Shown: positions 17,715 through 38,781 of the stretch, in pieces
Numbering within the stretch: the first letter of the stretch is position 1
Layout of the letters: each line of letters starts with the position of its first letter
From: Amoebophrya sp. A120
Taxonomy: Eukaryota; Protista; Dinoflagellata
Direction: 5' to 3'
Assembly: GCA_905178155.1 (NCBI GenBank)
Contig: CAJINV010000007.1
Coordinates: 3,299,800-3,363,799 of the forward strand
DNA length: 64,000 nt
The notes under the pieces: model-generated
Databases searched by the model: none
Told to the model about the DNA's origin: nothing
What the model saw: only the letters and a program-made list of their open reading frames with translations
Program-made: the position numbers and the translations under genes

Positions 17715-20700
17715 ATGGCCCAGCAGCAGCAGCAGATTGAGTACGTGAAGCGTGAGCTTCGCGTACCGGCAAACACGCCACTGCCCCCCGTTCGCCAAAC
17801 CACGGTGCAAAAGACGGATGAGCTGTTTCATCAGGGCGACATAATTGTGCTCGTACATAACCAGAAAACGACGAACGAGAAGGACTTGAAGCAGGCGTGG
17901 AATGACTTAATCCCTTACAACAAGTCAGTCCTCGTTTACCGGGTGGATGGGGAGCACACCGTAGCAGCGCCCGGTCCAGCGGACCGCCTCGGCCAGCTGC
18001 CCCAGCATGCGAACCACGCAAGAGGGCAGAAGGTTTTACCGCAGATGACGTTGGAGCCGGTGAGGTTGCCGGAGCAAAACGAAAACCTGAACTTTTTCCG
18101 CGAAACGCTACTGAAAAAGGGGGGAACTAGTAGTGCTGGAACATCAAGTGCGATGATGAAAATGGAGCAGGAGCACCAGGGAACAGCAGAGCAACTTACC
18201 ACCGCGAGCGGAACCTCGTCATCTGGAGGCTCATCGTCTTCTAGCAGTGGCCCAGTTACCTCCTCCTCTAGTAGCTCGTCTTCTGGCGAAGAAAATCATG
18301 TGCAAGAAAATTCGAAAATGACAAAGGCATCTTCAACAACCTCTATCATGAAGAATTCCAGCCTTAAGCTCGCCGAAACCGACATGTACGAGCGGGAATT
18401 GAAGCCGAAACCGCGGGACGAAGTAACATTCAAAGTCCCCCGGCTGAATTCCGCCATGGCGGGGGGTAACAAAAATGCCGACTTATTTGCACCCTCTTCT
18501 AGTAGTAGTGCAACATCTACAACTTCAAGGCTTCCGCCGGGCGGCATGGTGGACGGCGGCGGTAGCTCCCTTGAAGAGTACTTGGCTGACCAGAAGACAA
18601 TGAAGGGTAGAAATCCAAATCCGAAACGGGTTAGCTTTCCGGCGAACGAGGTCGAGCAGGAGTTCCGCTTCACGGGGTCCTCGCCGCTGACCACGGATAT
18701 CAACCAACAGATGAGTCAGAATTTGACGGCGCAAGCCGTTTCGGGCAGCCCGATTCGGAGTATTCAAATGAACAAAAGGTATCCGCAGTTCCACAACGCA
18801 GATAGTACGAATTCTGCTGGTGGTGCAGCAGTTGTATCCACTGGGTCCTCGTCGGCGTCTATTAAGCCGGGTTCCCCGACAAAGCAGGAGGAAATCGAAA
18901 GGATCTGGACTGGTGCGGGATCTGCGGGGGGAGGTTCGTCTTCGAATCTCGGCATGAGTCCGAGCGAGGTGATGCTCTCGACCGCGTTCTCCCGGCCGCG
19001 GGTGCCAAAGTCGACAGTTTCGTCAAAACCCAGGATTGACCTGCCCACGCGGGAGGACGCGATGGCTGTCGGTACTGGTTTGTCTACTTTCGTATGCATG
19101 TTGACGTTCAAATCCGCTTATTGTTTGGTTTCGCTTGCCTAGATGATCGCTGTTCTTCTTTGTCGTGCATCAAAAATGCTGCCCGTGGTGTATAAGACTG
19201 AAACTGAAACACCCCATCTTCAGGTGAACTGCCTCCTCCCCTGCCTCCGCGGCACGTGACCCTTTATTCCCTGTCCGAAGAACTTCGCTCGCTTTCCTCC
19301 TCCGTGAAACTCCGACTTTCGCTGCTCCATCCCTCGCAGGGCGGGTTGGGTGGGGATATGAACCCCACGGAAAGCAGCGGGAGTGAAGATCAGTTCGAAA
19401 CGCAGAATCCGCAGAACAGCCAGAACAAGAACACGAAGGAGTGCCAGATGCTGGACGAAAGAGCGCTGTTATTGCTTCGGCAAGCGGAGCAGAACCTCGC
19501 GCTGAGTGATTTCAGCAAGGAATTGCGGAAAATTTCCCCCGATCTCGAATCCATTCTACTCCAAACCAACGAACTGACCACGAGTAACAACAGGTTATCC
19601 ACTTCCATCACGGAAAGGCTGGATTTCCAAAAACTGTTGAAGTTTGTGAAGAACTTGCAAAGCCGGAATCTCTACTTGGTCGACGAGTTCCAGAAGCAGG
19701 CGAACACGCTGCAGAAGCACTTGTTGCAGATTCTAGCCTCCACGCACCCGAAACGGCAGGCCGAGTTGGAAAGTCGGTGGAGGCAGAAGAACGCGCCGGT
19801 GGTAAAAACGACCGGGAGTCACGTGGACGTCGATATCGTTTCGCAACCGGACAAGTTGTCCGTGCTCCAAACGCAACTGTTTGACGTGGTTGAGGTTCTG
19901 CACGAGTTAAACAACACGATCAACAACAGTCACCAAGCGATCTACGATATTTTGCCGGATCGCGAAAAGCGGAAGCTGTTCACGCATTTGCCCCCCTTCG
20001 ACCGAAACGCGATTCTGCTATCCCCGTGGGAGTTGGCGGAACTGCAGAAAACGGGAACCGTAGCCTTGAAAGACGCGAAGCACGTGTCGATCCAGTTGAC
20101 CGCGCAGTTCCTGAACGCCTACTTGCAGAGAACCCATTTTGACGTCGCGCGGGATCTGGCTGGAGAACTCCCCGACGAGTTCGTCAGTCCCATCGACCGG
20201 GAGCTGTTGGCGAACGGGGATTTTTCCGTGTTGTCCAAAACGGTGCTGCCGATGCTGAAGCAGAAAGCGGACCAGGGGGTGGAAATGGAGCGCTTGGTGT
20301 TGCACAGCGGGCTACTGAGCTCGAAGAAATCCAACTTGCTAGTTGACGCGAAACAATTGGAGAAAACAATCGAGAATCAAAACAGCAACAACAGCAATCC
20401 AGACGACTTCTACACGGCACAGAACAAGCAGCAGAAAGCGAAGCTCGTTTTGCGGCAAGCAGCTGAAGAAGCGCGGGAGACGCTGGCGGCGAGGGATCGG
20501 CTGGCGGCTTTGCTGGACGGGCCGGCACGGAGTATGATTGCGGAGGAGCACGCGCCGGGCTTGCCTGCGGTCGTCGATGCGATAGAAACCGGGTTTAAAG
20601 GTATAAGTTTGTTTTGTTGTAGACTGTTGTATTCGTTTTTTACGTGCTTTGTCTGTGTCAGGTTTTGCAGGGGACAAATTATCACTGCCCGAACCTCGTC

Positions 20701-21851
20701 CAAACTACAGCCCACATTTCCGAGCTTGCGACTAACAAGGAAGAGAAAAAGGCGTTAATCGAGATGGGCGCGAAGAAGCAGCGGAAATTAGAGGAAGCCC
20801 TGCAGGAAAATAAGCAGCTGAAGGAGGAGCTGGAGCAGCAAATTAAACGGAACGAAGCCCTCGAACAGGAGTTTGACAGCAAAGAGCAGTCCTACCGCCG
20901 ACTTCTCGCTTCGGAACGGGCGGACAAGGCTACGGCGCTGGAACAGCTGCAATTAGAAAGTATGAAGCACACGGAGCTGATATCCTATGTAAAAACGTCC
21001 CCACCCCATAGTCAAGATGGGAAATCTGCAACACAAATCGCCAATTTTTGGGAGTTCGACATGACAAGTTTCCATCTGCAGTGTAGTGCTGGACAGCAAG
21101 GACAGCCGCATGAGAAAGCCATTTACTCATGCTGTTTGCAGCATTACAAATTCCAAAACACGACTGGAAATGCCTCTCAAGGAGATGCGCATTACAAATG
21201 TTCCTGTCATTGCACATTAGCATGACAACTCTAGTGTGGGGACGTTTTTACACACGATAGCTGAAGCAGAAGTCCGCGGCGTTGCTCGCGACCTTGGAAA
21301 CCGCGAACCAGGATATGGAGCTCTCAAATGATACATTCTCAACTGTTACATAAATTTGTAATGCAAGACTGGCAAAAGTGAAAGGAGGAAGATTGCGCCT
21401 TTTGCATTACAAGTTTGGCGCAGATTTAGATGCTGTTTAGCCCTTCCGAAATTTGTCATGCGAAGCAGCTCGATCATCTGGATCTGCCGGCTGAAGGTGC
21501 TTTTGCATGACAAATTCATGGGACACCCACACAACTTCCGTCGCAGCCGTCCCAGTAGTTGCTGTGGAGGCTCTTCGGTAGAAATCGCACTGCCCAATAA
21601 ATTCCGCTAGAGTTTACCGGGTATGCGGCTACTGTTTGTCGAAATAATTTACATGGAGACGCCCTGCCCTTAGCCTTCCAACATGACAAATTCATGGGAC
21701 AGCTGAGAGTGTAACGTTTGAGAACGCCATACAGGAGCTCACCGGGTTGCACCGAAAAACGAGCGAGAAAATCAACGTGTGTGCGGATCTGCGGACGGCC
21801 CTGAGTGACTCGCTCTCCCACACGGTGGACACGCAACTGATCGAAAACTGA
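17715..21851 (+). CDS. Multi-exon coiled-coil protein containing two introner insertions
   Basis: Inferred GT-AG introns at 19072(or 19078)-19223 and 20601-20710, plus TIR elements at 20981-21259 and 21314-21731. Removing all four gives a continuous frame ...TELKQKSAALLATLETANQELTGLHRK...LIEN*. Confidence 0.8.
20981..21259. mobile_element. Introner/MITE-like element A (279 bp) in an exon
   Basis: TIR tatcctatgtaaaaacgtccccac / gtggggacgtttttacacacgata (22/24). TSD GCTGA at 20976-20980 and 21260-21264. Removal restores the frame. Confidence 0.92.
21314..21731. mobile_element. Introner/MITE-like element B (418 bp) in an exon
   Basis: TIR tatggagctctcaaatgatacattctcaactgt / acagctgagagtgtaacgtttgagaacgccata (27/33, extends to about 50 bp). 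TSD CAGGA at 21309-21313 and 21732-21736. Can be spliced as GA-AG. Confidence 0.92.
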
Positions 21852-22578
21852 GGAGCCGGAGCGGGTGGGTCATGGTTTTCTTTGTTCGACCGACTAGAGC
21901 ATTTACTTATAATATACTTTCATCATAGAGATGGAACTGTTCTGTAAGCTAACGCTTCCAGAGCCCGTGTTACGAACAATGCAGCGCACCTATGATTTTG
22001 TGCTTTGGGAGTACGCGGAGGTGTAGTTTTTTCTGTACGGATTTTCAATTTCATTTTTGAGCTTACTGCAAGATTCATCTTTTTTGAACTAGCAAAAAAA
22101 TATGCGGATTTTTCACGATGGCCTGCTGTAACTGTATCTATCCTCGTGAAATACAAATAGTTGGAAAAGTAGCATAAATTAAGATTCTTGCATAAAATAT
22201 TTGAGTTTGTTTTGTTGGCCATCAAGATGAGTGGTGGAAGTGAAGGTGACCTGTACCTAGTATGGAGAAATTTTTATGGAGCAGCATCGTTTTCTTTTTG
22301 TTTGAAGGACGTGGACGAGCAATGGATTCATAGATACTTCGTCTTCGACGAAAGAAGATAGGCGAATCTTCGAATGAGTCCGTCATTCATAAACGTGTGC
22401 TAAACTTTTGCTTTTGGAGTGCCCCCCGACGAGCCCGAGGATTAGGACATTTCCTCGCGGCGAGAGATGTAGAAATAACATTTGCGACAGAACGAGGAAC
22501 AAGCAAGATGAAGATCGTATTGACAGTTGTGAGTCGTGGCCCGGATAAACAAAGTTTCAACGTAGAGCATCGAAAACC

Positions 22579-25500
22579 ATGGCCAGCCCCGCAGGACAAC
22601 GCCCGGCATCTTCTAGCTCGTCCTCGTCTTCGCCGCGAAGCCGGATGATGCAGCATGCAAACGACCACCCCGCCGTAGTTCCTCACCTGGACGAGGTTGC
22701 TTTTGCGGAGTTGGAAGTGAAGGTGCGGAAGATGGTTCTGGAAGTTTTGCAGCCGACTGTCGCGAAGAACAAGTCCTACGAGCAGGAGATAGTCAATCTG
22801 AAAAAGCAGCAAATATCGCAGAAGGAAGAAATTCTCTCCCTCCGCGACGAGACGAAGCAATCCACGCAGAAGTGTTACGCGATCGACCAGTTTCGGGAAG
22901 AATTGGTCCAGGCGGAGAAGGAGCGGAGAGAGCACCAGGAGTTTATGCGAGGGAATATTCGGCTGATCGACGACAAGGTCAGGAACAACAAAATCCAGTG
23001 TGAGCAACAAAACTCGTTAATTCAACAGCTCCAGAGACGGACCGAAGCCATCGAGGAGTCGGTGAAGGACTTGCAGGGAAGATTTGAACTGTTGAAAGCG
23101 CAATTGACCAACGAACTGGTGCAGAAGGGGAAGGAAATCACGGACACAAAAGCGGACATCGAATTGAAGTTCGCGAGAAGCGAATACTCGATTGCGAAAA
23201 CGGTGGACCAGGTGTTTGAGCAGGAGCGGCAGTTGGGAAAATTGTTGTTTCGCCTGGAGAAGGAGGAAAATTATTCCAAAAGCTTGAGTGGGAAGTTGGC
23301 AGAGCTGGGCGAAAAAGCGGTTTTCAGACTCGAAGTCGAGAAGAAGCTCAGCGTCATGCAGAAAAGAATTGACGAAGGTATAGAAATAAACTACTTGGCG
23401 CAGGAGCTTGTTGAATAAAAAACAAAATAAACCTTAACCTATAGTATCAAATAATGTGTTTTGCTTGTATGCATGTAGAAGAAATAAAGCAGCCCATGAT
23501 GCGAACGGGAAGATGAAGAGAACGCATAAAACATCCCAACTTTTAATTCTATCAGCCCGCGCCGACACCGCGGAGGTGCAGCGATTGATCACGGATACTT
23601 CGGAAAATCTGAAAAAACACTTCGAGACGGCGTCCAACGTGATTGCGGTGAACACGAACGCGAGTATCAAGGACGCGAGGGAGGAGTTTTCCCGGAAATT
23701 GTCAGAGAACAAGGATGCGCAGAAAAACATTGTGGACGCCGTGGAAAAATTGGAGGAGATGGACATCGACCGCAAGGTGGCCGAGCTGCGCGCGGACATC
23801 GACCGCGAAGTGGAAGTGGTACGCGAGGATTTGATCGCACGTGACCGGCGGTGGAAGAGGGACTTGGCGGATGCGAGGGTCTGTTGGTTGTTTTGGAAAT
23901 AATGGTTGTTTGCTGGGCAGTGACTGCAATGTTGAGAATAGCACAAGGAAGCTGCACTGGTCCTCTGTCTTGTTACGTCATGTTCCGCATGATTTCACCA
24001 AACAAACACTGAAACAGATCGAGCGCACCCACCTCGGCAAGGCCGTGACAAAGGCTATGTCGGCAAGCGGTTTGCTGCAAGAAAACCAGGACCGTATTTC
24101 CCGTGCGTTGGAGCTGGTTTTCGATGCCGCGGACTGCTTGTCTCAGCTGTTGGTCCAAGATGAGACGGATAAGGAGGGGTTAAGCTTAGTCGGCTTTCGC
24201 GATAAAAATAATCCGAATGATGGTAGCGGTGCGCTACGTGGGGGCGAGGTTTCTGGAAGTTCATCACCGATGAAGTCGACATCTTCGTCAAGTTACAGTC
24301 CCAGGAAACCGAATTACAGTGGGTTTCACAATACGGCCGACAGTTCCACTTTTCCAAGGGCAACTGCAGCTGCAATAAATTCGAGCAATTCACCAAGTCC
24401 GCGGAAGATGCACCTCGTCACCAACGCGCAACAGAGGCCGAAAAGCAGTAGCAGTTCTTGTTCCACGCGAAAAATGCAGCAGAAACACCACAACTTGCAA
24501 AACAAACCGTCACCCCCCGTGATCTCCCTCGATCCTCGCTGCCTGGCCTGCAGCGGGCAATCGACACAAATTCTGCAGGGCTTCAAAATGGCGTGTCTGC
24601 ACTACAAGCCGAGCCCGGTGAAGTGGCGGCAGAATCAGTACACAAGATTAGGTCTGTTGGAAATAAACCGACAGATTTTGGCTATCACACAGAAAAAAAC
24701 TGGCAGGTCATATTTGTAATGCAAAAATAAATAGACAAGAAAACTTGTATAGCATACCCGAAATAGCATGCTACGAGGTCGCCCATGACAGATTTTTCTG
24801 TGTATTTATTTTTGCATTACAAATATGCCCTGCCAGCTTTTTTCTGTGGGATATTGGCGCAAGCACGAACGGTGGCGGAGGCGTGCTGTTTCTTCGACAA
24901 TAGTACGCAACAAATATTCGGCGATGGTCCAGGAGCGTGGGCAACGTCAAGCTCATCGGCGTGTACCATTCCGAGCTTGACCACAGGCGTGATACCGGGG
25001 GGCAGTTTGGGGGGTATTAACCGAAGCGGAAACGAGACTCGTGAACCTCTACCGCGTGGGGGAGGAGCGGGTGGCGCACATCTGCACGACCGCCGACCGG
25101 CAGGTCCTCCGGGCAGTCTTGTTTTGACAAATCAGCATCCCGACGATTTTGAATTTGGATCAACACAGCAACCAAGCTGCGAAGCGGGCCCTGACTCAGC
25201 GCGGACGACTTACACAGGGCGTGCATCGTCCGCTGCTAAACCGGGAGCAGTAGTTCTTGAGGGTCGATCATCGGACGGGTTTGGAGGTGGGGACTTTTTC
25301 ACTAGTGAAGACTTAACAAGTACGGTCGCGCCCGATGCCACCGGAACAATTTTTCTTAGTGGTGGAACGGTCCTCTCCGGCACCGTTTTCAACTACGACC
25401 CCTCAGACGAATTGGACCTAACCTCACGGCCAAGTACCGCCGCAACGACTACCAAATGTAAAAATGTCTGGGTCTGGAAACTTGTGATGCTGGGTGGCAT

Positions 25501-26616
25501 ATCATGAGGAAGCCACAACTGCTGGCTCAGCATGAGAAGTTTCTGAGCTTCTAGGTGTTGCCTATTCTGCATGACAAACTCATAAAGAAAGAACTTCGTA
25601 AAGAAAGAACTTCGTAAAGAAAGAAAGAAGCAAGCACTTCGTATTTTGAAAGCGTCGCGCTTCGTAAAAGCACTTCGTTTGTTGGAGTCGCTACGTGATG
25701 AAGCAGATAGCTCATGTAGAAATAAGCAGCAGATACTTCAACGCGTGCGCAGCTTGCGGGGGGGTGACTCCTGTGGTCCCCCCCCACTCGTTGCGCCTTT
25801 TTCCAAAACTGCAGGGACTTGCTTCCTTTTTTTTCCAGCAGTGGCTGGCGGGGTAAGATCAAGGCCGGGGCTAGTGACATTGTTGCAAAGTCATAGGGCG
25901 CAGAGTCTGATAGCAGTAGCACACAGCACCAAAATACTTAGCCCATAGCGTTTTCCGAAGTTCCTCAGTGGCTGCACCTCGCCTCTCTGTCTTAGTCAAA
26001 AACATAAGCACAAAATGGACTGGCGTAGCCGCGCACATGCATGCACGCGGAGGGGAAGATGGAATAGAAGGGTGGCGGCAACGCGGGAGCCAGGACGCAG
26101 CCCGGATTTTATCAAAAAGGTACGGCCTAAGGCCTCGGGAACGCCGAGCACACCCGCGCACTTCTTCGTGAATCGCCCACCGCTTTTTTTGCGTCAGCTG
26201 TGTCGGAATAAAAAAAAAAAAGAAAAAAAGAAAAGAAAGAGGACGCAACAAAAAAAAAAAAGAAAAAATAAAAAGAAAAGAAAAAAGAAATCAGCGAAAA
26301 CCGACCGGCGTACGAATTGCCTAGCAAAAAAAAAAAAATTCTGCATGACAAACTGCGTTTCTGCATGACAGAAAAGTGGCGCTCTTTGGTAACGTGCATG
26401 ACAGATTTGAGAGTCATGCCAGACACGCATGACAAACATGGACTCTTCCAGACCCAGACATTTTTACATTTGATAACGACTGTCGCAACCCGACCGGGTA
26501 CGGCGAGACGACCGAGCACCGCTGGAGGGCGGCCAAGCACTGCCGGAAGGGCCGCCAGTACTGCAACGCCGACCGTTACGTGGGCGGCTGGGGAGGGGAA
26601 TGAAGAAAATGCATGA
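22579..26616 (+). CDS. Multi-exon coiled-coil protein with an ISLDxxCLxCSG...FKMACLxY motif and C-terminal RPST repeats, containing two introners
   Basis: GT-AG introns at 23378-23555 and 23879-24017. TIR elements at 24683-24853 and 25450-26475. Spliced junctions read QILAQARTV and RPSTAATTVATRPGTARRPST. Confidence 0.8.
24683..24853. mobile_element. Introner/MITE-like element C (171 bp), nearly a full hairpin
   Basis: TIR of about 54 bp (tatcacacagaaaaaaactggcaggtcatatttgtaatgcaaaaataaatagaca and its complement, 4 mismatches). TSD TTGGC at 24678-24682 and 24854-24858. Confidence 0.95.
25450..26475 (-). mobile_element. Introner family D copy 1 (reverse orientation, enlarged by a nested insertion)
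   Basis: TIR taccaaatgtaaaaatgtctgggtctggaa / ttccagacccagacatttttacatttgata. TSD ACGAC at 25445-25449 and 26476-26480. Internal sequence is colinear with the 34210 and 36184 copies when reverse-complemented. Confidence 0.93.
25581..26337 (+). mobile_element. Nested poly(A)-ended insertion (retroposon-like) inside the introner
   Basis: Flanked by the 17-bp direct repeat attctgcatgacaaact (25564-25580 and 26338-26354). Ends in an A-run and has an A-rich tract at 26208-26290. Removal leaves 252 bp, matching siblings of 250 and 259 bp. Confidence 0.7.
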
Positions 26617-27517
26617 TTCAGCAGTAGAGAACATTCGTTGTGTATTGAAGTGTTGCGTCAACATACATCCAGCCTTGAAGTGGAGTCTCACTGAGTTCTC
26701 TAAAAAGCGAGACTTCGTTCATTGTGACCAGCATGAGTCCTGTTTCCATACAGTTTCAGTTTCATCAAGAGCGTAAAGTAGCCAAGAAAAAAAACCAGAA
26801 AAATGCACACAGAATGATCTAGCACTATTGCACAAGAGATGACAGTTTCAAAAGTTTCATCATCAAGTAATGAACGGACACGACTCCTCGATGCTGCAAA
26901 GTGAAAGCGATTGACAATCAAAGCGTAAGCGAATCGCGTTCGAAAAAAGTAAACTCTACGTTTCGTTTGGTACCAGGTCGAGGACTTTCCTCAAGACCTG
27001 TAATGAAATGCTGTTTTACTGGCCGCTTTAATATTCGTGTTCCGACGTGCTATATTAAGTGCTAGTGCGGCGCTCTCGTCGTGTTTACAGCAGCGCGTGC
27101 GTGTTTTCGTATCGATCTCTCGAAGAACGAGATGAGTTGTGATAGGCTACTGACATAACGGCGAGTTTTGCGTTGTTGCTGCAGAACCGAAATCGAAAAT
27201 CGGCTCGAGAATGAACCATGAATCTTTCTTGTTGATGTTGCCAAAACCTTTCGATCTAAATAAAAATGTGTCACAGTGGTATTGCTAGTTAGAAGGAAAA
27301 CTTGATGATTTCCCGTCGACAGCATACAATTACGACGAAAATCTGGCATTTTAGCTTTCTTCCTGAAATTCAAAATCTGAATCACATGTATTACATGGAG
27401 AACCAGTCTCGCAACAGCAAAGTCCTACAGCCGCGGTCCTTGTAGCTCGACAACCTTCCGTTTCATCCGCGGAGCGCACGGAGCTACATCGAACTTGCGT
27501 CACAAGTACACCTACCG

Positions 27518-30500
27518 ATGACAGGCGGTGCACCAGGTGCAGCTGTGTCCTCTTCGAGTGCGGCTCCGCTGCGACCGGCCGAGGAAAGCGGGATCCAGCA
27601 GTTGACATCATCCACCGGAGCAGGAGGAGGAGCACCCTCTGCCACCCAAGATGGAGGTGGTACTTCTAACCCCATCGGGCGGGCCAGTGGTCGTTTCTCG
27701 TACGCGTCGATCGCAAACGCGCGGAGCAAAGACCTCCAATCCGTCGACGCGGCGGAGTTGGACGCCAGTGCGGCCAGCAACCGGAACAAGCGGCGGTTGG
27801 AGCGGGTTAGCGACCCGGAGCTGAACCGCACGCTGGACAAGATCATGGTGGACTGCAGCGGGTTGGGGTTCGACTCCTTCTCTTCCAGCAAGCGGGCAAA
27901 GGTGGCGGACGAGCAAGGCGGGGTAATGCTGTTTTTGGATAATAGTGAAAATCAAAATCTTCATGAGGATTCTTGTACAAGAGCATACCAGGAGAATAAT
28001 TATGATGATGTTCCTCATTCCTCTTGTCCTGACGGAGAGGAAGAAGTACTGCCTGTGCCAGAGGTGGTGGTCCTGGACCAGAATGCGGAAGAGGATCCGC
28101 CTAAGCAGGAGTCTTTTTTCGACGCAGCAGAGCTTCGTTCGTTGCCGCCAGATTTCGATTTTCCACATGGCAGCTGCACTAAGGGTAAGGACCGGCATAA
28201 GCACAGTTTTAGTACTCGGGGGAAGATGAACTACCTCGACCTGCTCAGTCCTTCGCACCAGCCCGGAGCTGAAAATGCGAAGAAAAGTGAACAAGACTTG
28301 CTACCCTTTTCCCCTCTAGTGTCGTGGAGAGATGACGATATCGATAGCGAGCGAGAGAACGCTAGTGAGATTGATGAACCAATCGAAATAACTGGGGACG
28401 AAAACAAGCAGACCCGATCTCCTACTCCTGGGAAGGAAGTTTTGCCACTGTCACCTCTGCAGCTAGACTCGTTGGAAGGCGAAGCGGCAGCAGGGCAGGC
28501 GAAGACTTTTGAGCCAAGGAGGAGCAGGTGGTTTGAAGAGTGCGTTGCTGGAGATGAAGCCAGGAGCCATGGCGTCGATGGAAAGACCATCATGATTACC
28601 AGACGAATGCAGGACCCCTGGAGCTACATCGACGGAGGACTCACGCGGAAGAACCACAGGAGCGGCCGGAACAATGACGCTGACACGGGGCTGGGGCAGC
28701 AAGGATCGTCGTCGGCTCGGCAAGTTCGCGACCTTGCGGAGGAGGCACAAGCGGAAGAGCACGCTGATAATCTCGATTCCTCAGCGCATTTGCTAAATAC
28801 CGCGTTGTTTTTCGGGCCGCCAATAACCTCGGAGACGACCAACGTTAAGCCTTGTCCGCATCAGAGTCGAACGCATCACGATAGATGCCCGCTTTCTGCT
28901 TCCTTCTCCACGACTGCCTCAAGTCCGTTTTATTCCTCAACCGCATCCTGCTCCCACGATGAGGGCAGCACGACTCTGGAACTGCACTACTACCTGCCAG
29001 ACACAGCGTATAGTTCTGACACGGGAACAAGAGAAGCTGATGCATTTCCGCATCGCGGGGGAGAGTGGGGCCCGGATGGATTTCTGGATGAGAGCCCGAG
29101 ACGGCCGCAGGAGCGTCGGACTGTAAAGGCAGGCACTTCATCATCTGCAGTGGGAGGGCAAAGAAGTGCGAGGGCCGCGAGGACCCCTGGACCACGGCGC
29201 CTCCAGAGCTCAAGTCTGACAGCGTCGCATAGTCTGAGAAACAGCCGCGAACCGTCTGCAACTACTACGCGGCGAAGTGCAGGGAACAAGATGGATCTCT
29301 TTACAACTTCGGGACGAGACGTGGACAATTTTTGTGGTAATGCATCTCGACGGCCTTACAGAAACAGATACAGTAGCTCGCCACTCCGACGCCCACCGTC
29401 CGCTTCTGCGAGCAAAGTGAAGCTGGATCAGCCTAAGGCCCTGTCCGCTTCCTACCCGCCGCCGTCCCCGTCGAGAGTGCAGCGAGGCGGTCTCGCAGAG
29501 GCAGCCACTGGATCATCGTCCACTTCCAGGTTGGTGGCAAGGGTCCTGCCCTCGAGAATACCGCAGCCTCGAGGACTGCCACAAGCCGCTGCGCCACCAA
29601 TACCACTAGCTAGGTCCCCCTACCCTTTGCGCTTATCCTTACCAGCAGAAAATCAAGACTTGGCATCGCTATTGCACATCAGCCGCAGGAGTTGCAGCAG
29701 GAGGAGCGTCACTGTGCGAAATCGGGATTATGACAGCTGGAAAGCTCAGTCTCAGAGACAGAGTGTGGACAAACCTTCGGCGCGAGGACATGACGACAAC
29801 TTACACTTGCAGCGGACACAAATGGGCAGCGAAAAGAACGGTTCAACTATGAAGGGTTCCGGCGGTCCGACCTGTTTACATCAACCTAGGATAAGTGTAA
29901 GCAGGCGAGCGGAAATGAGAGAGCATAACGAGCGAGCACCTTCGACCTCGATATCGATCGAAACTGAATCGAACGCAAAAAATCAAGTGCCAGACGACCC
30001 AGATGAAAGCAAGCCCACCTCCCGGGCGCGACCCTCTCAATCCCTGAGGGCCAGTCTTCTGCGCCTTCCCTCTGTGAAGGTAGTCCGAGATGATGCCACT
30101 ACTTCGACGGAAATTGTTGCACAAAGCGTGAGCCACAGCAGTTGGAGTTGCAGTGCCCATACAGAAGACAGAGATCATAGAGATAAGAAGCAGCTCCAAA
30201 TATTACAGCATCAAGAAAATTTACTACCCGCGCTTCTGAACGACCTAAAATCCTAAAATCGTCTTCTCAGGTCCGCGCTGTAGCGCCGCAACGCTTGCAG
30301 CAGCAGGACTTGTCGTTACTCAGTCTCTCCGGCGCCAACAGCTCGCTACTCAACTCCTCGGCTGCCGTGGGCGCCGCAGCCATCGGGAACAATACGTCGG
30401 CTTCGAGCAGCGGCCTCCTCTTGCCCGGTGCGAGCGAACAGATTGGCGGCTCCTCGGCCTCCTCCTCGTTTCACAAGTACAACCCGCCGTTGCGGCGCAA

Positions 30501-32918
30501 CACCCCGCCACGGCAGGGACCCCCAGCGCGACATGGCTTGTACGCGAACGCACAAAGCAGCGGGTACGGACCGCCGATCGGCGCGAAAGCAAGGGCGGGA
30601 ACGCCGCGGAGCGCCACCGGGGATATGACCTTGGTTGGGCTGGGCTCGGTTGCAAAGGCGGGAAGACCGCCCTCTCCGAGATTGGTAGAGATTTTCATCT
30701 TGATGTTTGGTGTAACCTGAATTGGTATACTGTTCAACTGTGCACGGATCCCCATTCCTCTGAAATGTCATGCCTTTTTAGTCTCTACTATCTGGAATGC
30801 ACAATTTCCACATGCCGATGACTCGTCAAAAACTCCACCTCTTCCTTCTTCCCAGGGCCAACAACCGGCTTCCGCGAACAACCCGGAACAACAGGGAAAG
30901 CGCGTGGGCGGGTGGACCGCGAAGTTGGCCGCGAGTACGGCGATTACCGCGGAAACGAAGGAGCTTGAGGAGGAGAGGAACAAACTCAACCTGGAGATCC
31001 AGGAGCTCTCGGAGCGGCGGAAAAAGGCGGAGAAGACGGTGCAGGAGCTGCAACGCGAGGAAGCAGAACTAACGATTAAAGAGGAGGAAGCAGTGATGCA
31101 ACGCGACGAGTTCATCGAGAGACTCAAGTCCGCCCGCGAAACGTGGCAGGCGAAGATCCAGGCGAAGAAAAAGCAGAAGGACGAGATGGAGCGGAAGGTG
31201 GAGATTAGCCGGAAAGAGCTCCGCTACGCCACGGAGCGGTTTGATACGCTGCAGCGGACGAAGCAGCTGGAACTCGAGGAGATCGCGAAGCACAACAACC
31301 GGAAAAAGTGCATTGAAGAGGAGTTCAAACTGCGACACAAGGAGGAGATGGCGAAGTTGAAGGAGATCGAGTCCTGGAAGGCGCGCATCGAGGAAGCGCA
31401 ACTGTACAAGCAGAAGATCCAGCAGAAAAGGTCGCTGTTGGTGTTGAAAACGAAGGAACGGTATCCTGTGCAAAAGTATCGTACTCGTACAAATGCAAGT
31501 CTTGCATTACAAATCTTGTTTCCAAGGCAAATCTGCATATACAAATTTTATTTCTCATGCTGAGGAAATTTGTCATGCATTTATACGAATAAGATACTTT
31601 TGCAGTTCATAAACAGTTCAACGAGTACATTGAGGTGAAGGGGAACATCCGGGTTTTCGTCCGGATCCGCCCGATGACGCCAGCGGAGGAATCCAACAAG
31701 GAGAAGGCGGCGCAGATGAAGATTGACGAGCGCAGCGGGAACATGGAACTGGAAAGCGCATCGTTTTTAAACGTGAGCGGGTGCGAGAAACAGACGAACA
31801 AGTGGACGTTTCACTACGACCGGGTCTTCAACACGGACGCAAGCCAGAAGATCGTGTTTGAGGAAATCTCGCAGCTGGTCAAATCGGCGCTGGACGGGTA
31901 CAAGGTCGCGATATTCGCCTATGGGCAGACAGGTAATGTGGATTTTTGTTCTCGAGATCGCATTTGTTTTGTTTTGCGGTCGTTCCGTACTGCACTTCTT
32001 AACTGAAACCATGCATAAGCATCAGCAACTGAGCGGCAAATGTCCATCACAGGCAGCGGCAAGACTTACACGATGGAGGGCCCCCCTCAGCAGGCGATCA
32101 CGGAAAAGAATTTCGAGCGCAACGCGGGCATGATCCCCCGGGCGGTAAAGCACGTGTTTCAGCACATGCGGAACACGAGCGGGTGGCAGTTTGAGTGCTC
32201 GATCAGCTTCATGGAGATCTACAACGAGAACATCCGGGACTTGCTGAACAAGGGCAAGGACGTCAGCGTCATCATGGCCCCCGACCACGAGAGCACCACG
32301 AACGCCAGCACGTTCAAGGTGGAGCGGGAGGAGGACGTCCGCGACGCCTTGCAACGAGCGCACTCGCTCCGGTCCTACGCCAGTACCGCGATCAACGACC
32401 GGTCCTCGCGGTCGCACACGGTGTTCCAGCTGAACCTCCACGGGAAGGGGCCCCGGAACACGACCTTGAAGGGGCTGCTGTCTTTGGTGGATTTAGCCGG
32501 CTCCGAGCGGGTGGAGAAATCAAAAGCGACCGGGGATCGGATGAAAGAGGCCCAGCACATCAATAAGTCTTTGTCCGCTTTAGCAGGCGTGATCACGGCG
32601 CTATCGGATAACAAGTCGTCGCACATCCCCTACCGGGACAGCAAGCTCACCCAGATGCTGAAAGACAGTCTCGGGGGGGACAGCAAGACCTTGATGTTTG
32701 CGAACATCTCCCCGTTGGACAAATACTTGTCGGAATCGATCAACAGCTTGAGATTCGCCGCGCAAGTGAACTCCGTGCACCACTCGCAGTCAACGGCCAA
32801 GCGGGGCACACCGGCCGGAAGTAAGACAGGAGCGGCAGCAGGGAGTGGTGGTACCGCGGGTGCCGCCGCGTCGAGCAGCAGTGGCGCGACCGGGGGTGCG
32901 GCCGGACCCAACAAGTGA
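27518..32918 (+). CDS. KIFC1: Kinesin-14 (KIFC1/Kar3/Ncd-type, C-terminal motor) with a long disordered N-terminus and coiled-coil stalk
   Basis: Neck NEYIEVKGNIRVFVRIRP, P-loop YGQTGSGKT (split by intron 31933-32052), SFMEIYNENIRDLL, NDRSSRSH, LVDLAGSER, HIPYRDSKLTQML. Other introns are 30080-30270, 30685-30855 and the TIR element 31462-31611. Linkage of the 27518-30079 exon is less certain than the motor part. Confidence 0.88.
31462..31611. mobile_element. Introner/MITE-like element E (150 bp) in the kinesin neck
   Basis: TIR tatcctgtgcaaaagtatcgtactcgtacaaatgca / tgcatttatacgaataagatacttttgcagttcata (29/36). Imperfect TSD AACGG/AACAG. Removal gives KE(R/Q)FNEYIEVKGNIRV. Confidence 0.92.
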
Positions 32919-34126
32919 GTGGATTGATGGTGCGCCGCGCAGGGGAAAGTGCTTGTAAAAGTCGCAGCAGTACAAACAATTTTCGATCGTACACTACATC
33001 TCGAGCTTTTTCTCGTAACCTTAATACTTGTAACAAACCGAAATAACACTTCCCGGTCGAACTCGAACGCCAGATTTGACCGCAGAGCTTGTTTCTATTT
33101 CACAAATATTAACCGAAGCGACCGAAACCGAAGGTGAATATCCGAAGCAACCAGATTTTTTGGAAATCATCAGCGTATTTTGTAGTCGAAGCACAGTAAA
33201 GTGATACAGGAAAATGTATGGCTCCATGCGGCCGAGATTCTGTGTGGAGTTCCTGAGTAACATCGAAATCAGTCGAAACAGATAAAGAGAAAAAAGAATG
33301 TCTGCAGGAAATAATTGTCCACGGTGGAACCTCCACTTGATGAATCATCGACAAGGTCCAGGGTCCAATCACATGAAAAATACAGTCGCAGCAACAAACC
33401 ACGAACAAGCTTTCTGTTTTCGGAAAGTGATTTACGCTGCCTTAGACTTTGTCAGTTCACAGGTGGCTATGCAGCTGTAAATGCTCCAGTTTTATTTGTG
33501 TTGCTTTTCTACCATGGATGCTGCTATCGCAATATCGTCTCACCGATCCTTCGTCGTCTTGCTCCGCTTCGATTTATTCGTAATTACACGGGATATTCCT
33601 GATCGGTTCTCGGTTTTCATCGTAGCTGTGATTTTGACTTTCGCCTCGTGACAACAGATCTACTGGCTGGTGCATCCATTTCGTTCGCGGTCAAGATTCG
33701 ACAGTCGCTCGCTGTCGCTTTTTGGCAAGGCGAGCAGCGCGTCGATGTGACTGAAGGTCGTGCGGTCTTCGTTGGTGCTTTATTGACGAGGAGGCAATAA
33801 GATGTGAGAGCTCGTGGAGTTGCTGCGGCTAGTAATTCTTTTCGCTTCATTTTCTGCTCCCGTCGCTGTGATAATGAGTATGTATCTATCACATTGTTGA
33901 AAAGTTGTAGCTTAGAAGACTCACTCTGAACAAAACATAGTTGGAGAGCGATGTAACTGCTGTCCAAGTTGTCCAAGACAAAAATGAAGTGATAAAGAAG
34001 GCCCTCAGAAGAAACTACTGAAACAGATTCCACTGCTCGAGCAATTACTGAACATTTCCGTTCGGTTTCGCTCCTCCACAGCTGCTGCTTCCCGCCCGGC
34101 GCTGACAGCTCTGTTTCGTCGTCAAG

Positions 34127-37100
34127 ATGATTTCCGCCAGTCTGGACCATGGGGCGAGCGGCAGCTCGCTGGCGATCGGTCAATCTTCGTCGCCAAACAA
34201 GGAGTCGGGTATCAAATGTAAAAATGTCTGGGTCTGGAAGAAAGCAAGGTTGTCATGCTTGTCTGGCATGCCTCGAGGATCTGTGTTGCATAGGCACGAA
34301 AAGGTCCTCTTATCTGTCATGCAAAAACGCAGTTTGCCATGCGGAATACGTAACACATGGCAGCCAAAAAATTGTCATGCGTCGCTGCGTATTGCAGTGT
34401 GTCTATCGTTCACTTTTAGCATTACAAGTTTCCAGACCCAGACGTATTTGCAATCCATATCGGGGTTTGACGAGCAATTTCTGTCGAAATACGTGCAGCA
34501 GCGGGATGAAGCGGCGGAGGCGGTGCATCTACAAAGCGCGGACGAAGACGCAGCCTTGAATCTGGTTAGAAGCAGCTACTTACTTGCCTGCTAGTTTTGC
34601 ATTTTTATATGCAGGAGAACTCATGACCATGACCTTGACCTCATGTATGAAGCGCATAAACTTAAACATGCAGATTCATGTTCATCTTTCTCCACGAATG
34701 CTCTAAGTACTGATCTCGCTGCTTCTATCGTCACACGAAGATGTTGTAGTACAAACTACCTTCTTCAAAACTACAGGGGAACGACGCTGGTTCGAACGCC
34801 GATAGTGAAGAGGAACACGGTTTGAATGTCGAGCGCAAACTGTGCCTGTTTCAAACCCCGGCCATACAGCAAACGCTGCTCAAGTTCTGGCGCACGCTTC
34901 TGAAAACCGCAGCGAGTAAGGAACAGAGGGAGAGGGATAGGGAGGCAAAGCAGTCGGGAAGGGCTGCTACTCCAGTGGTGGAGTCGAGCACGATTGGGAT
35001 GGGTAATTTCTTTGTGAGGTCTGTTCTTGACGTCGTGGTTGTCGTGTATCCTGTTCTTCACACCAAGATCAAGCAAAATCAGTCGCGATTATGCTACAAA
35101 TGAATTCAACAGATACCTTCCTCCAGTTCAATATCTTGCTCCAGCGCGTTCTCCTCCAAGAGCAAGAACTCGACTTAAGTACGGCCCGCGCATCTGCGGT
35201 TACAGACTGGCTGGAGTCGACTACCATCGTAGCCGCGGATAACACTACTTTGACGTCGGACGATTCCCAATCGCATCAGTCGAGCATGGAAGACCAACGT
35301 AATTTAGGAGTTTTGTACGCTTGCATACCTCCGAGATGATTTTTTGATGCAAGCTGTCCTGCATTGTTTTCTATCAATCTTCAACATTCGACAGAATCCG
35401 CCAATCGTTCTACTGCATCAAGTACTGGCACGGCTGAAATTGAAATCAATAAAGTACGCCTTAAAGGTCCCATCGACGAACGGCGGATGACGATCGACCA
35501 ATTTGCGCTTTTTCTGTTTGACCTGACCGTGATCTGGTGTCACTTGAGCTACAGTTCCTTCCTCTTCTTCCTCGGCACCCTCTTCCTTCACACGACCAGC
35601 GCGGACCACTTGGAGACGGTCGAATTCAAATTGGAGGACGTGAAAAAAGTCCAGCCCTTGCCGCAGCAATTTTTCCAGATGGCGGCGGATGACTTTGAAT
35701 TTCCGACCATCTCCTCCAGCAAAGTGGTAGGTGTAGATCAACACGCCGATAGTCCTCACGCCGGGTTCTTTGAGCCGTCCCAGTCTACTACGGAGCAACT
35801 GCACACTGGCATTGGCGGGATTCTAGTCGGCAAAGGCGGGGCTTCGTCGTCCACATCTCTTAGCTCGCCCAGACAGTCGAACAAGTCCATGACAATCGCC
35901 GCAGCGCCACACTTACCCAGCTCGCTGGCGAACAGTCGTGCGTTTTTAGAAGGACAAGGAACTACAACAGCAGCTGACGCGGGGACTTTTTCACAGCAGA
36001 ACTTGTTTTCTGCGGCAGTTTCAACCACCGAGGTCTTCGGGGCGGGAACAACTAGTCAACAACAACAGCACACCTCCCGGAAGCAGGTAGAGCAGCAGCT
36101 ACAGGAAGAACAACTGCTCCACGACGAGCAAGACGAGGCGAAGCAGTTTGAGAAATGGTACCAGATGAACTTCCAGACCGAGGTATCAAATACGAAAATG
36201 CGTGGGTCTGGAAGATTGCGAGATTTGTCATGCTTGTCTGGCATGACCAAAAAGTTTGCGATGCGTATCCAAGAAGAGACTCTTTTGCCTGTCATGCAAA
36301 AACGCAGTTTGTCATGCGAAAAAGAAAAACGCAACACAAAGAAGCGCAGATATTTCTCATGCTTGGCTGTGCATTACAGAGCATTCATTATACCCAACGC
36401 AGCATTACGAGTTTCCAGACCCAGACATTTTTGCAATCCATACGAGGACGAAACGTTATTGTTCGTGCAACGGCAGATGTTCGAAGTGACCAGGGATATC
36501 CGAGCGGTTTTTCTCTTCCCCGGACCATCCGGCGGTAAGAACAACAAGCTGACGAACCGCGCACGGATACTGGAGCTCTTGGACGCAGCAAAGAGGCTGC
36601 AAATGGATTTGGAGAAAATTGCGCCGGTATATTGATTTGGAATGATAATTTGTGAGACTGAGAGTGAGCGTGAAGGGACTCCTCGTATGAAGAAGCATGC
36701 TCATGGTCATGAGCACGGCGCATTTTATTTAGAATATGTTGAATGACCCAACATGACCATGCATTGGAACTAGAAGTGGGAGTTGTCGGAACGGTAGCTG
36801 CTGCTTGATGATCATTCCGTCCTTTCAGGTCAAGGCTTCGGCGCTTCTCACCAGCGTCGGTCCGTACAACCGGGTAGAGCGGGCGGCGGCGATGAAACAG
36901 TCCATGTCTTCCCCTTCCACTAGCCCGGGAAAACATCATCAACCAGTCGCAACATCACCTGCGAGTCCTGGCAAGAAACATCAAGATTTCAGCCTGATTC
37001 CGAAATCCCTTCGCCCCGGGGGCGGCCGAATGCCACAGGACAAAGACCCGCACCCCTTCTACCAGACCCAAACGGAGGCGGCTGGCATGTACTTTTCCCA

Positions 37101-38781
37101 GGCGAAGAGACGGCCGGACAAGTACTTGGTGGTGGGGAAAGTCGAGGACTTCCGGCGGCGAAGGGCGAGCGGTGCGGCTGGCAACGTCAACATGTTTCAT
37201 CAACAACCGAAGGCCGGGGGGTCATCATTACATCATGGGACTGCTGCATCAAGTCCGGGGAAAACGAAGTTGTCCAGCTTGCACTCCGGGCAGGAGATGA
37301 GCAGCACGGTCGCCGATAGCAAGGGGAAACGGACCATGCTGGTCGAGACCGGCCACGGGTGGCGATCCGGGTTTTCCACCACGCAAAATGAACTGCCCCT
37401 CGGCGTGCCGCAGCGGTTCGGGGCGCCGGAGTTCCTGCGTTTCCCCTCGCAGGATGACGTGGAGCAGTGGAACCGGCCCAGGAGTCACAGTCCACCAAAA
37501 CTCAGCAGCAGCGTCGGGTTTCAAGTTCAACGCCAAAATCCCACGAGCGGGAGTGCAGGTGAAGCAGCTGCTCTATCAAGTACAACTTCTAAGGTCAACG
37601 CTTCTACTGCTGCGCTTGCCCCTGCTGCGAAACTACACGCATCCTCCGCCGACAAACTTTTACCTGCAGTGATGTCGCCCACAAAAGAGGCAGAAACGGT
37701 GCGGGACTTCGTGGCCAGGTTTGAAGTGTATTTGCGAGAGCAAGGACAGGTGGAAGAGCCGTTGCCGACTTACGATCTGCCAATAAGGATACCAGAGGTG
37801 AGTGGGAGAATTTTGGCAGCGTGTTTTGTCAAAATATTCCGTTTTGTTTTGCATAGATTTTGGTTCGTATAATGCTTATGCTATGCATCCCAGAAATGCG
37901 TTGTACCCCACCCAAATCTATCAGGTTTATTCGAACCAGCTGAAACCTTGGCTCGCAACGAAAGCGGACGATATCCTTTACTGGGTCAAGGGACAGGAGG
38001 AGCAAGTGGTGGAGAAAACGCGGAAATTCCAGTCCATTCAGGGGCTCCCCGGTCCCCTGGCCAACGGCTCCGCCACTGTGTGGAGCGACATGCGGGCGCG
38101 CTTGGCCCGGATCCTGGCCCGGGGCGAGAAGCGAGTCGAGCGGAAAAAGAAGAAGAAGCAGCCGGGCGCGAAAAAGAAAAAGCGCGAAATGGCGGAGCAG
38201 CACGGCGGGACGGAGAAGATGCAGACGTTTGTCGTGCCAAGCAGCGTGAATGTGAGCACTGGTGCGGGTTCTGCTGCTGGAGACAAGAGTAACAGTGCAG
38301 CGGCTGCTGGTGCTGCTAATAAAATGAACTATCAGCAATTCGCGGACGCGAAGGCGCATATAAATCGCCTCGCCGACCCACCAAATGCTGCGAGCAAGGG
38401 GACCAGGAGAGGTACTGTAGTTCTTCCCTTCGTAGAATCGATTCATTTCACAAATTTTCCGCCCGAAGAGGAAGCAGAACTTTTTTGCTTTGAGACGACT
38501 CTGTATTCAACATCAACATTCATTGTGCAACTACAACACCAGGTCGCGGCGCCGGCGGGCCGGACAAGAAACTGCCGACTTGGGTTAAAGACCTCCCAGG
38601 GCGCGAATTCGCGTCGTTCCTCGCCCAGAAAGTGGTCGATGAGCAGAACCTGTTGCAGAATGTGTCACAGGCAGAAAGGATACGCATTTCGCCGAACGAT
38701 GAAGAGATCTGCAGTCCGGGGATGCCGACGCCGAACGATTTGCCGTCGGTTTTGTGGAAGCCCGGGGAGAGCTATGCTTGA
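34127..38781 (+). CDS. Large multi-exon uncharacterised protein containing two family-D introners
   Basis: GT-AG introns at 34565-34776, 35003-35112, 35299-35394, 36627-36828, 37798-37924 and 38412-38542, plus elements 34210-34459 and 36184-36442. All junctions are in phase, and the protein ends ...VLWKPGESYA*. Confidence 0.78.
34210..34459 (+). mobile_element. Introner family D copy 2 (250 bp)
   Basis: Ends tatcaaatgtaaaaatgtctgggtctggaa / ttccagacccagacgtatttgcaatccata. TSD TCGGG at 34205-34209 and 34460-34464. Removal gives KESGFDEQ. Confidence 0.95.
36184..36442 (+). mobile_element. Introner family D copy 3 (259 bp)
   Basis: Ends tatcaaatacgaaaatgcgtgggtctggaa / ttccagacccagacatttttgcaatccata. 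TSD CGAGG at 36179-36183 and 36443-36447. Equivalent to a GT-AG intron at 36183-36446, giving QTEDETLL. Confidence 0.95.

Follow-up and report, generated by a model that had tools for sequence, protein, structure and literature searches.

What kind of sequence can lie within a coding exon, mostly without the usual intron ends, and nevertheless be absent from the protein, and how does it leave the message? The question is raised by a 64-kb stretch of Amoebophrya sp. A120 DNA (the window), in which four genes carry seven such inserts in addition to their GT-AG introns (Table 1). The class of element is already published and annotated. A literature search found no paper that determines the removal mechanism (the figures of Farhat 2021 and the datasets of Gozashti 2025 may show the register or the superfamily), and reviews written five years afterwards, in the portions available, still go no further than hairpin joining and the absence of U1. 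The reading that we prefer, with moderate confidence, is that the inserts are A120-introner miniature DNA transposons, and that they are likely removed, together with one copy of the flanking direct repeat (TSD), by a relaxed spliceosome that reads their inverted repeat (TIR).

Table 1. Elements and host genes, in coordinates of the window
Feature	Position	Strand	Remarks
Host gene A, coiled-coil protein of unknown function (P0174)	17717..21851	+	2 GT-AG introns and elements 1-2
Element 1	20981-21259, 279 bp		TSD GCTGA at 20976-20980 and 21260-21264; frame shifted if retained; P0174 lacks the element
Element 2	21314-21731, 418 bp		TSD CAGGA; 3n, stops inside; GA-AG register possible
Host gene B, coiled-coil protein with conserved Cys-containing domain (P0021)	22579..26616	+	2 GT-AG introns and elements 3-4
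Element 3	24683-24853, 171 bp		near-complete palindrome; TSD TTGGC; within conserved domain
Element 4	25450-26475, 1026 bp		TSD ACGAC; ~750 bp of additional, non-coding cargo
Host gene C, kinesin-14-type motor (P0001)	27518..32918	+	3 GT-AG introns and element 5
Element 5	31462-31611, 150 bp		kinesin-14 neck; TSD copies AACGG / AACAG, mismatch at position 4
Host gene D, function unknown, conserved in Amoebophrya (P0171)	34127..38781	+	6 GT-AG introns and elements 6-7
Element 6	34210-34459, 250 bp		TSD TCGGG; 3n, stop-free if retained
Element 7	36184-36442, 259 bp		TSD CGAGG; 3n, stop-free if retained; GT-AG at register 4

All seven elements with TAY...ATA ends and 5-bp repeats that a first-pass annotation of this DNA had claimed are present, with starts and repeats as in Table 1; a 5-bp direct repeat flanks every one of them, one pair being mismatched. 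The inverted arms measure 29-66 nt in six elements and about 50 nt in element 2, and each of the seven is predicted to fold into a hairpin (z -3.0 to -9.7 in the six tested). An unanchored scan for TIR plus TSD returns noise for the most part, and an anchored scan with shuffles was used instead: at a TIR of at least 14/20 with an exact TSD it gives five matches in the window and none in any of 20 shuffles, while the remaining two elements pass at TIR 13/20 (element 7) or with a 4/5 TSD (element 5). Elements 4, 6 and 7 constitute one family, with element 4 in the opposite orientation to the other two (81% over 139 nt with element 6, on the reverse strand). The site of element 4 is in the poorly conserved tail of the gene B protein, and its five internal ORFs match no Pfam family above cut-off. 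The three host exons that were queried are 100% identical to annotated Amoebophrya A120 proteins, and the fourth gene is A120 protein P0021. No Rfam family was found in the 64-kb window.

The same families are represented by 274 copies in a second assembly, 158 of them confidently coding and 116 not; families of 7-45 members take in all window elements except element 3. TAT stands at 161 of 165 5' ends (the search itself demanded TAY ends), and A at TIR positions 11, 12 and 13 in 146, 149 and 158 of the 165. Among 408 TIR pairs, an exact 5-bp TSD occurs 221 times and an exact 6-bp TSD once. Strand calls scored from coding potential agree with Pfam-defined strands in 15 of 15 cases, and orientation counts in the four largest families are 27:19, 19:15, 10:5 and 6:6. 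The longest paired copy has 1031 bp, transposase families are absent from the 112 ORFs scanned of 235 listed, and no copy of the TIR motif was found among viral contigs. The elements are thus MITE-like: they have a TIR and a TSD of fixed length, are short, and no coding capacity was found in them. If retained, 154 of the 158 confidently coding copies would entail a frame shift or an added stop; one exon of RPB1, corresponding to residues 830-1068 of yeast Rpb1, has a copy on either side.

In the window, deletion of the element with one TSD generates a junction peptide that is present in the annotated protein in all seven cases (gene annotation in A120 is transcript-based; Farhat 2021, PMC7789003). 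The claim of the first-pass annotation that this deletion restores the frame stands for the seven annotated junctions; it needs qualification for elements 6 and 7, whose lengths are multiples of three and which contain no stop in the host frame: retention would not break it (ORFs 34106-34594 and 35340-36635 stay open). It is the orthologues, rather than the frame, that show these two to be extra sequence. Orthologous proteins lack an insert at elements 3, 5, 6 and 7, in a comparison at protein level that is compatible with an intron at the same place in relatives. In particular, the A25 orthologue P0022 and nine other homologues are continuous through the site of element 3, P0172 and P0173 lack the 85-residue insert of element 6, orthologues are unbroken across the site of element 7, and the A25 and AT5 orthologues of the kinesin have, at the junction of element 5, an Arg that is encoded by the left TSD copy only. 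The orthologues thus fix the junction to the residue at elements 3, 5 and 7. A search for orthologues of P0174, the host of elements 1 and 2, found none.

Sliding the junction across the TSD gives GT-AG for element 7 only and GA-AG for element 2 only, and no GT/GC/GA-AG solution for the other five, just as the first-pass annotation had it. In the second assembly the target profile comprises 135 sites (the 158 coding copies minus 23 with a TSD mismatch). A GT/GC/GA-AG register is lacking in 119 of the 135; the canonical or dinoflagellate G[TCA]-AG pattern, found in two of the seven window elements, is available at 16 sites, with 16.1 expected, and G..G at 36, with 35.5 expected. None of 21 target positions departs from the phase-matched background (lowest p 0.07, n=135), and 13 tests reveal no register-specific excess. 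Candidate signals fare no better: the G at TSD position 4 (6/7) and the GG within the TSD (5/7) of the window elements, considered as a hidden splice signal, vanish in the 135 copies, and an excess of GT-AG or AT-AC at register 4 (10 cases where 6.5 are expected, p 0.12, and 10 where 7.9 are expected in a wider set) was likewise discarded. Insertion phase is biased (33/47/79, p 3e-5). This is equivalent to a phase-0 excess at register 4, but was rejected as support for that register: insertions in that phase also have the TSD centred on a codon, and a symmetric target preference could give the bias. (The target profile of non-coding copies, n=34, failed to predict it.)

The two TSD copies are mismatched in 23 of the 158 coding copies, at all five positions and at about the rate of non-coding copies (0.12 vs 0.16); 12 of 25 mismatches are non-synonymous. 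As a guide to the cut, these mismatches favour registers 3-5 over 0-2 by 1-2 log units only (n=25). Three coding copies without a TSD are still best fitted by removal of length+5, though they may be assembly chimeras. A TSD at background composition, occurrence in both orientations and mismatched TSDs together imply that exon dinucleotides are irrelevant and that TSD identity is not needed. The proposal of the first-pass annotation that hairpin and TSD, and not dinucleotides, guide removal is accordingly borne out in that no exon-side role of dinucleotides is detectable, and is not supported with regard to identity of the TSD. Since exon-side dinucleotides, orientation and TSD identity all seem not to matter, the information should reside in the inverted repeat.

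What in the inverted repeat is read? Selection on pairing at the RNA level leaves no sign: G-U pairs (143) are about as frequent as A-C oppositions (137), with no excess at 10, 15, 20 or 30 positions, and coding copies (0.84) equal non-coding ones (0.86) in stem quality. Pairing is poor over the outer 10 positions of the stem, at 46-62% for positions 4, 5 and 7. The terminal TA shows a weak asymmetry between the two ends: among 198 coding-scored copies it is lost from the sense 5' end in none and from the 3' end in 8, among 203 copies in 1 and 9 (p 0.02), and in the strictest set in 1 and 7 (p 0.07). A re-run that allows end shifts gives 3 vs 8 (p 0.23), two of the three 5' cases proving mis-registered on inspection. 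Non-coding copies have lost TA at neither end (0/40, and 0/37 in the re-run), which fits poorly with a simply neutral 3' end. There is thus a weak signal of a linear, donor-like TA at the element's 5' end, a feature that the first-pass annotation did not consider. This strand asymmetry, and the TSD mismatch in the kinesin gene, where register 4, 5 or 6 is needed to keep the orthologous Arg, suggest a donor mimic, N|TA, beginning one base before the element. The sole GT-AG solution in the window (element 7) falls at register 4, and GTA begins 10 of the 13 canonical introns of the four host genes.

The removal scheme that we favour would run as follows. Miniature DNA transposons of many families, with TAT-N7-AAAAA ends and a 5-bp TSD, would be mobilised in trans by a DDE transposase and enter coding-exon sites in both orientations; with an identical repeat at both ends, the 5' end should read TAT in either one. 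The last TSD base and the adjoining TA(T) would form a GTA-like donor whose first base is free, and the cut would fall between TSD bases 4 and 5 (N|TA). By drawing the two ends close to each other, the predicted stem would fix the 3' cut at some four bases beyond the element, making AG unnecessary. In its sharpest form, an acceptor-less, ruler-type A120 spliceosome that reads only N|TA, supplied by the TIR whichever way the element lies, and uses the hairpin to gauge where the 3' cut falls, this is a tentative proposal to which we give appreciably less than an even chance. We know of no close precedent for a spliceosome devoid of any 3' terminal nucleotide preference, and neither a branch point nor a transposase was identified for the elements. 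Published data bear on the proposal from both sides. In Table S4 of Farhat 2021 (PMC7789003), T occupies +2 in 9/9 of the commonest non-canonical classes in A120 and in 9/9 in A25 (classes that may reflect alignment conventions). Of 89 spliceosomal proteins, 83 were found in A120 according to the same source, as were U2, U4, U5 and U6; U1 snRNA was not found, which counts against spliceosomal removal. Fritillaria provides an example of a spliceosome retooled to deal with non-canonical introns (PMC13326754). The published model, that of Farhat 2021, already has both hairpin joining and an altered spliceosome; not found in the available text of that paper are the neutrality of the TSD against a phase-matched background, the orientation counts, the G-U/A-C test, the 5'/3' TA asymmetry and the placing of the cut from mismatched TSDs.

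Removal need not be spliceosomal. The work might be done by a structure-specific endonuclease that cuts the hairpin at its base, followed by an RNA ligase that joins the exons, as has been proposed for euglenid nonconventional introns. The lack of a terminal nucleotide preference at every register, the indifference to orientation, the strong predicted stems and the U1 snRNA not found in A120 (Farhat 2021, PMC7789003) all fit, as does the departure of euglenid introns with TIR and TSD-like repeats as circles and not lariats (PMC11282704). However, a pure reader of structure predicts more G-U than A-C in the sense strand and better stems in coding copies, neither of which is seen; it must also contend with the poorly paired outer 10 positions and, if the 5'-biased conservation of TA is real, with a linear signal. 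We consider this route unlikely, if a serious contender. A further possibility is that the direct repeat drives a jump of RNA polymerase over the hairpin, with re-annealing at the second TSD, or DNA excision in the expressing nucleus, and that template switching by reverse transcriptase might add false junction reads. A hairpin with a short direct repeat is the setting of such template switching, and the product, exactly the element plus one TSD, is the expected one. Mismatched TSDs at about the non-coding rate, and TSD-less coding copies that still fit length+5, make it improbable, and an artefact of reverse transcription cannot rescue the kinesin or RPB1 frameshifts.

Two explanations dispense with exact removal at the RNA level. 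If the ordinary spliceosome used nearby GT-AG sites, or the elements were retained, the exact junctions would be an annotation convenience. Frame-keeping GT-AG pairs, 6-15 per element, occur within about 60 nt of five of the seven elements, element 7 has an exact GT-AG, and elements 6 and 7 are open when retained. Against this, no such pair lies within the same distance of elements 1 and 2, orthologues pin three junctions to the residue (two orthologues rule against the kinesin pair GT 31441-AG 31616, seemingly nearer to the usual neck), and non-canonical introns constitute >60% of the RNA-seq-supported introns of the lineage (Farhat 2021, PMC7789003); the explanation is very improbable. Alternatively, the element is kept in the message and the ribosome bypasses it, leaving a codon of the first TSD and landing on its counterpart in the second. 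The geometry is suitable, in that a 5-base repeat should always include one whole in-frame codon. Phage and mitochondria offer known cases of translational bypassing over hairpins between matched codons. With inserts of up to 1 kb, non-synonymous TSD mismatches that are nevertheless tolerated, and published junction reads and transcript-based models without the elements (Farhat 2021, PMC7789003), it is hardly credible here.

Should the preferred spliceosomal reading hold in its N|TA form, with the 3' end left free, no spliceosomal chemistry known would be more relaxed, and the tolerance of thousands of insertions into essential exons would have an explanation. On the ruler-type version, a TA..TA MITE could insert at any position of a coding exon, even one of RNA polymerase II, and would make a perfect intron whatever the target site. 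TSD-mismatched copies (about one in eight) break the sliding ambiguity, and existing RNA-seq could therefore place the cut to the base.

Among known systems, U12-type introns, whose donor motif is RTATCCTT, were considered and set aside: only two of the seven elements start with TATCCT, and positions 4-10 vary between families. Minor snRNAs are reported absent in A120 (Farhat 2021, PMC7789003). IS3EU/GingerRoot elements share TA..TA termini with TIRs (PMC10045372), but their TSD is usually 6 bp, as against 5 bp here; no IS3-like DDE transposase was found in the ORFs of element 4 or the scanned ORFs of the second assembly, and the elements are not filed under that group. Fritillaria borealis also has transposon-derived introns without GT-AG, which a modified spliceosome handles, but it keeps U1, preferred classes of ends and a duplicated U2AF (PMC13326754), whereas in A120 no U1 snRNA was found and Table S6 of Farhat 2021 (PMC7789003) lists one U2AF65 and one U2AF35; SF1, Prp38, Prp43 and Brr2 appear in that table as duplicated. 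Euglenid nonconventional introns resemble the A120 elements in their non-canonical ends, TIR stem, TSD-like repeats and unknown machinery, and differ in having a Y|R junction consensus and leaving as circles (PMC11282704); no junction consensus is seen here. The introners of Polarella, Symbiodinium, Aureococcus and Micromonas are likewise MITE-like, with a TSD, phase bias and, in some, both orientations, but they take G[TCA] and AG from the TSD or the element (10.1101/2020.10.14.339549; PMC11282704), and their TSDs are constrained for that reason, whereas no TSD constraint was detected in the A120 copies. The A120 introners of Gozashti et al. 2025 (PMC12130899) come from the same genome and are of TIR type; their family 38 has an integrase-like ORF, while no ORF-bearing copy was found here. 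Closest are the A120 introner elements of Farhat 2021 (PMC7789003), and the statement of the first-pass annotation that Amoebophrya introners with inverted and direct repeats and non-canonical ends had been reported is correct for A120 itself: an inverted repeat that starts with TAT, followed by seven loose bases and then at least three As, direct repeats of 3-5 nt, non-canonical ends, a median length of about 260 nt, a hairpin model and strain-specific gain are common to both, and there is no difference in kind.

The seven window elements, named here by their start positions (first table rows), are real members of a class already described by Farhat et al. 2021 (PMC7789003, here as in what follows in its available portion), as the first-pass annotation had said of Amoebophrya introners in general; what was found is thus a group of elements known beforehand. 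All lie where that annotation placed them; each has TAY...ATA ends and is flanked by 5-bp repeats, and sliding the junction across the repeat does yield GT-AG for 36184 only and GA-AG for 21314 only. At least 14 of 20 complementary terminal bases plus an exact repeat occur in five window elements (and in 0 of 20 shuffles). The window contains six occurrences of a 20-base TIR motif, and internal TGT(A/C/G)ATG motifs also recur there (28 in 2.6 kb of elements versus 33 in the remaining 61 kb). Element 25450 is reversed relative to 34210 and 36184. Removal had further been said to restore the frame every time: the junctions are as claimed, but 34210 and 36184 are stop-free in the host frame and their length plus one TSD is a multiple of three, so that the frame makes no demand for their removal.

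Features of the window and their positions
Feature	Window position	Description
Elements 20981, 21314	start 20981; 21314	gene A
Elements 24683, 25450	start 24683; 25450	gene B
Element 31462 (element 5)	start 31462	gene C, kinesin-14-type, neck
Elements 34210, 36184	start 34210; 36184	gene D
Cargo of element 4	25580-26340	16-bp tandem repeat, GC-rich hairpin-like stretches, 81-bp A-rich tract
Eighth candidate	62963-63219	TAT...ATA ends, 16-nt perfect inverted repeat, at end of long ORF
Lone arm-like stretch	63594-63633	same family as eighth candidate, in non-coding DNA
Open frame, kinesin gene	27446-30256	936 codons, spans annotated 2.3-kb first intron
Long ORF	7852-16314	2820 codons, uninterrupted, no element inside

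Pfam and Rfam searches with the element 4 cargo, and a Pfam search with the first 1383 residues of the 2820-codon ORF, gave no match. The eighth candidate is without an exact 5-bp TSD; similarity to a family of the second-assembly loci is seen in the right arm (74% over 62 nt), and removing the candidate's length+5 or +2 reaches the better-scoring downstream frame.

Element plus one TSD is absent from all four host gene models (7/7 junctions) and, since the A120 annotation derives from transcript alignments (Farhat et al. 2021), these junctions constitute indirect RNA support. At 100% identity, three queried exons (kinesin and two others) match proteins named Amoebophrya sp. A120, a name that the fourth host protein also bears; the other introns of these models are all GT-AG (13/13), ten of them beginning GTA. 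Orthologues are, at the level of compared protein sequence, support for removal that is independent of annotation. Those of A25 and AT5 match the spliced kinesin neck exactly through the 31462 site, ruling out a tempting canonical alternative (31441-31616), and orthologues are also unbroken across 24683, 34210 and 36184. The 25450 site lies in a poorly conserved tail, and an orthologue search for the gene carrying 20981 and 21314 found none. (A long open frame runs through the kinesin gene's annotated first intron, and the A25 orthologue has a long, low-complexity N-terminus, so that this intron may stay in the message or be subject to alternative use.)

The sample was enlarged by searching with the 20-base TIR motif, which located it in one other assembly, at 150 loci spanning 406 kb; the motif was absent from the viral contigs searched. 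These loci do not overlap the window and have families in common with it at ~70-89% identity. They hold 274 distinct elements (0 calls in shuffled loci), and exact repeats among 408 TIR pairs are of 5 bp in 221 cases, 4 bp in three and 6 bp in one. A retrained coding model scored 212/274 insertion sites as coding versus 146/356 random sites, with strand calls agreeing with Pfam in 15/15 cases; 158 copies make up the confidently coding set. One RPB1 exon, bounded by two copies, aligns to yeast residues 830-1068, presumably in the bridge helix and adjoining the trigger loop; within about 6 kb of RPB1 (L073-L075), exons hold four elements and a GT-type intron holds one more. Three coding-scored elements (L071:3889-4170, L031:4122-4321, L028:2376-2525) have no TSD at all and are still best framed by length+5 removal, reflecting either TSD-free removal or chimeric assembly. 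The TSD-start phase of coding insertions shows a strong bias (33/47/79, p 3e-5), with no accompanying bias in single-base composition.

Exon-side dinucleotides, fixed orientation, TSD identity and an intact 3' ATA all seem dispensable for removal. That splice-site dinucleotides do not guide it, as first proposed, agrees with TSD and flank positions, none of which departs from phase-matched coding background, and with registers at chance (G[TCA]-AG in 16/135 copies, 16.1 expected; no single register tested is enriched). Large families insert in both orientations (27:19, 19:15, 10:5, 6:6), two small ones in one (4:0, 2:0), and the 3' ATA is no longer intact in 8 to 10 coding-scored copies. The proposed guidance by TSD identity is not supported: 23/158 coding copies carry a TSD pair differing at one base, with mismatches at all five positions and at about the frequency of non-coding copies. 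Skipping guided by the repeat, excision from DNA or an artefact of RT fits poorly and is improbable; the TSD-mismatched copies make the removal mechanism directly testable.

Hairpin guidance, the published model being that a hairpin brings exon ends together (Farhat et al. 2021), stands in part. A fold that pairs the ends is predicted for all seven window elements (six of them with z -3.0 to -9.7), but the sense strand has no excess of G-U over A-C mismatches (143 versus 137) and stems of coding copies are no better than those of non-coding ones; the hairpin would thus be available, but these counts give no sign of selection on it. Table S4 of Farhat et al. 2021 has T at +2 in all 18 commonest non-canonical classes, and prompted a comparison, fixed in advance, of terminal TA losses at sense 5' and 3' ends: 0 versus 8 in one count, 1 versus 9 (p 0.02) in a second, and 3 versus 8 (p 0.23, two 5' cases mis-registered) in a further run, with losses at neither end of non-coding copies. 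Element 5 requires register 4, 5 or 6 for the orthologous Arg, and the 25 TSDs with a mismatch weakly favour registers 3-5. Taken together, these results suggest, short of showing it, a donor N|TA (register 4, the cut after TSD base 4) mimicking the local GTA. The only copy with its first T altered (to C; L125:79-330, strand call weak) is preceded by G, which makes the donor GC at register 4. Private changes at TIR position 6 number 13 in the sense 5' arm versus 2 in the 3' arm, an imbalance that may be noise (one of 30 positions tested); at positions 3-10 they number 52 versus 31.

A relaxed spliceosome is, on balance, the likelier agent: it would read the inverted repeat at its 5' end as donor, cutting one base beyond the element, with the stem positioning a 3' cut that is sequence-free. 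The main rival, an endonuclease-ligase pathway of the kind suggested for euglenids, is possible by analogy, if rather doubtful; U1 snRNA was not found by Farhat et al. 2021, who count non-canonical introns as >60% of those with RNA-seq support, and the available part of a 2024 review (PMC11282704) gives no further removal mechanism. Retention or use of nearby canonical sites fits poorly and is very improbable; retention would break 154/158 confidently coding copies, and a frame-keeping GT-AG alternative sought within ~60 nt of 20981 and 21314 was not found. Ribosome hopping is likewise a poor fit, and extremely improbable.

Firmer than the removal mechanism is the identity of these elements as non-autonomous TIR elements with common TAT-N7-AAAAA ends. 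Farhat et al. 2021 describe A120 inverted repeats as TAT, seven loose bases, then As, with direct repeats of 3-5 nt in Amoebophrya introners, and A120 introners as MITE-like, without a transposase in A120; the available part of Gozashti et al. 2025 (PMC12130899) reports that A120 has introners of the TIR type, one of which carries an integrase-like ORF. A transposase sought in five internal ORFs of element 4 and in 112 of 235 listed ORFs of the second-assembly loci was not found and, the TSD being 5 bp as against usually 6 bp in IS3EU/GingerRoot (as described in the available part of PMC10045372), no superfamily is assigned, although TA..TA ends are common to both. Polarella-type introners have their splice sites supplied by their own TSDs (10.1101/2020.10.14.339549, available part), whereas the TSDs of the second-assembly copies are at coding background; the lack of an exon-side dinucleotide signal sets these elements apart from that type.
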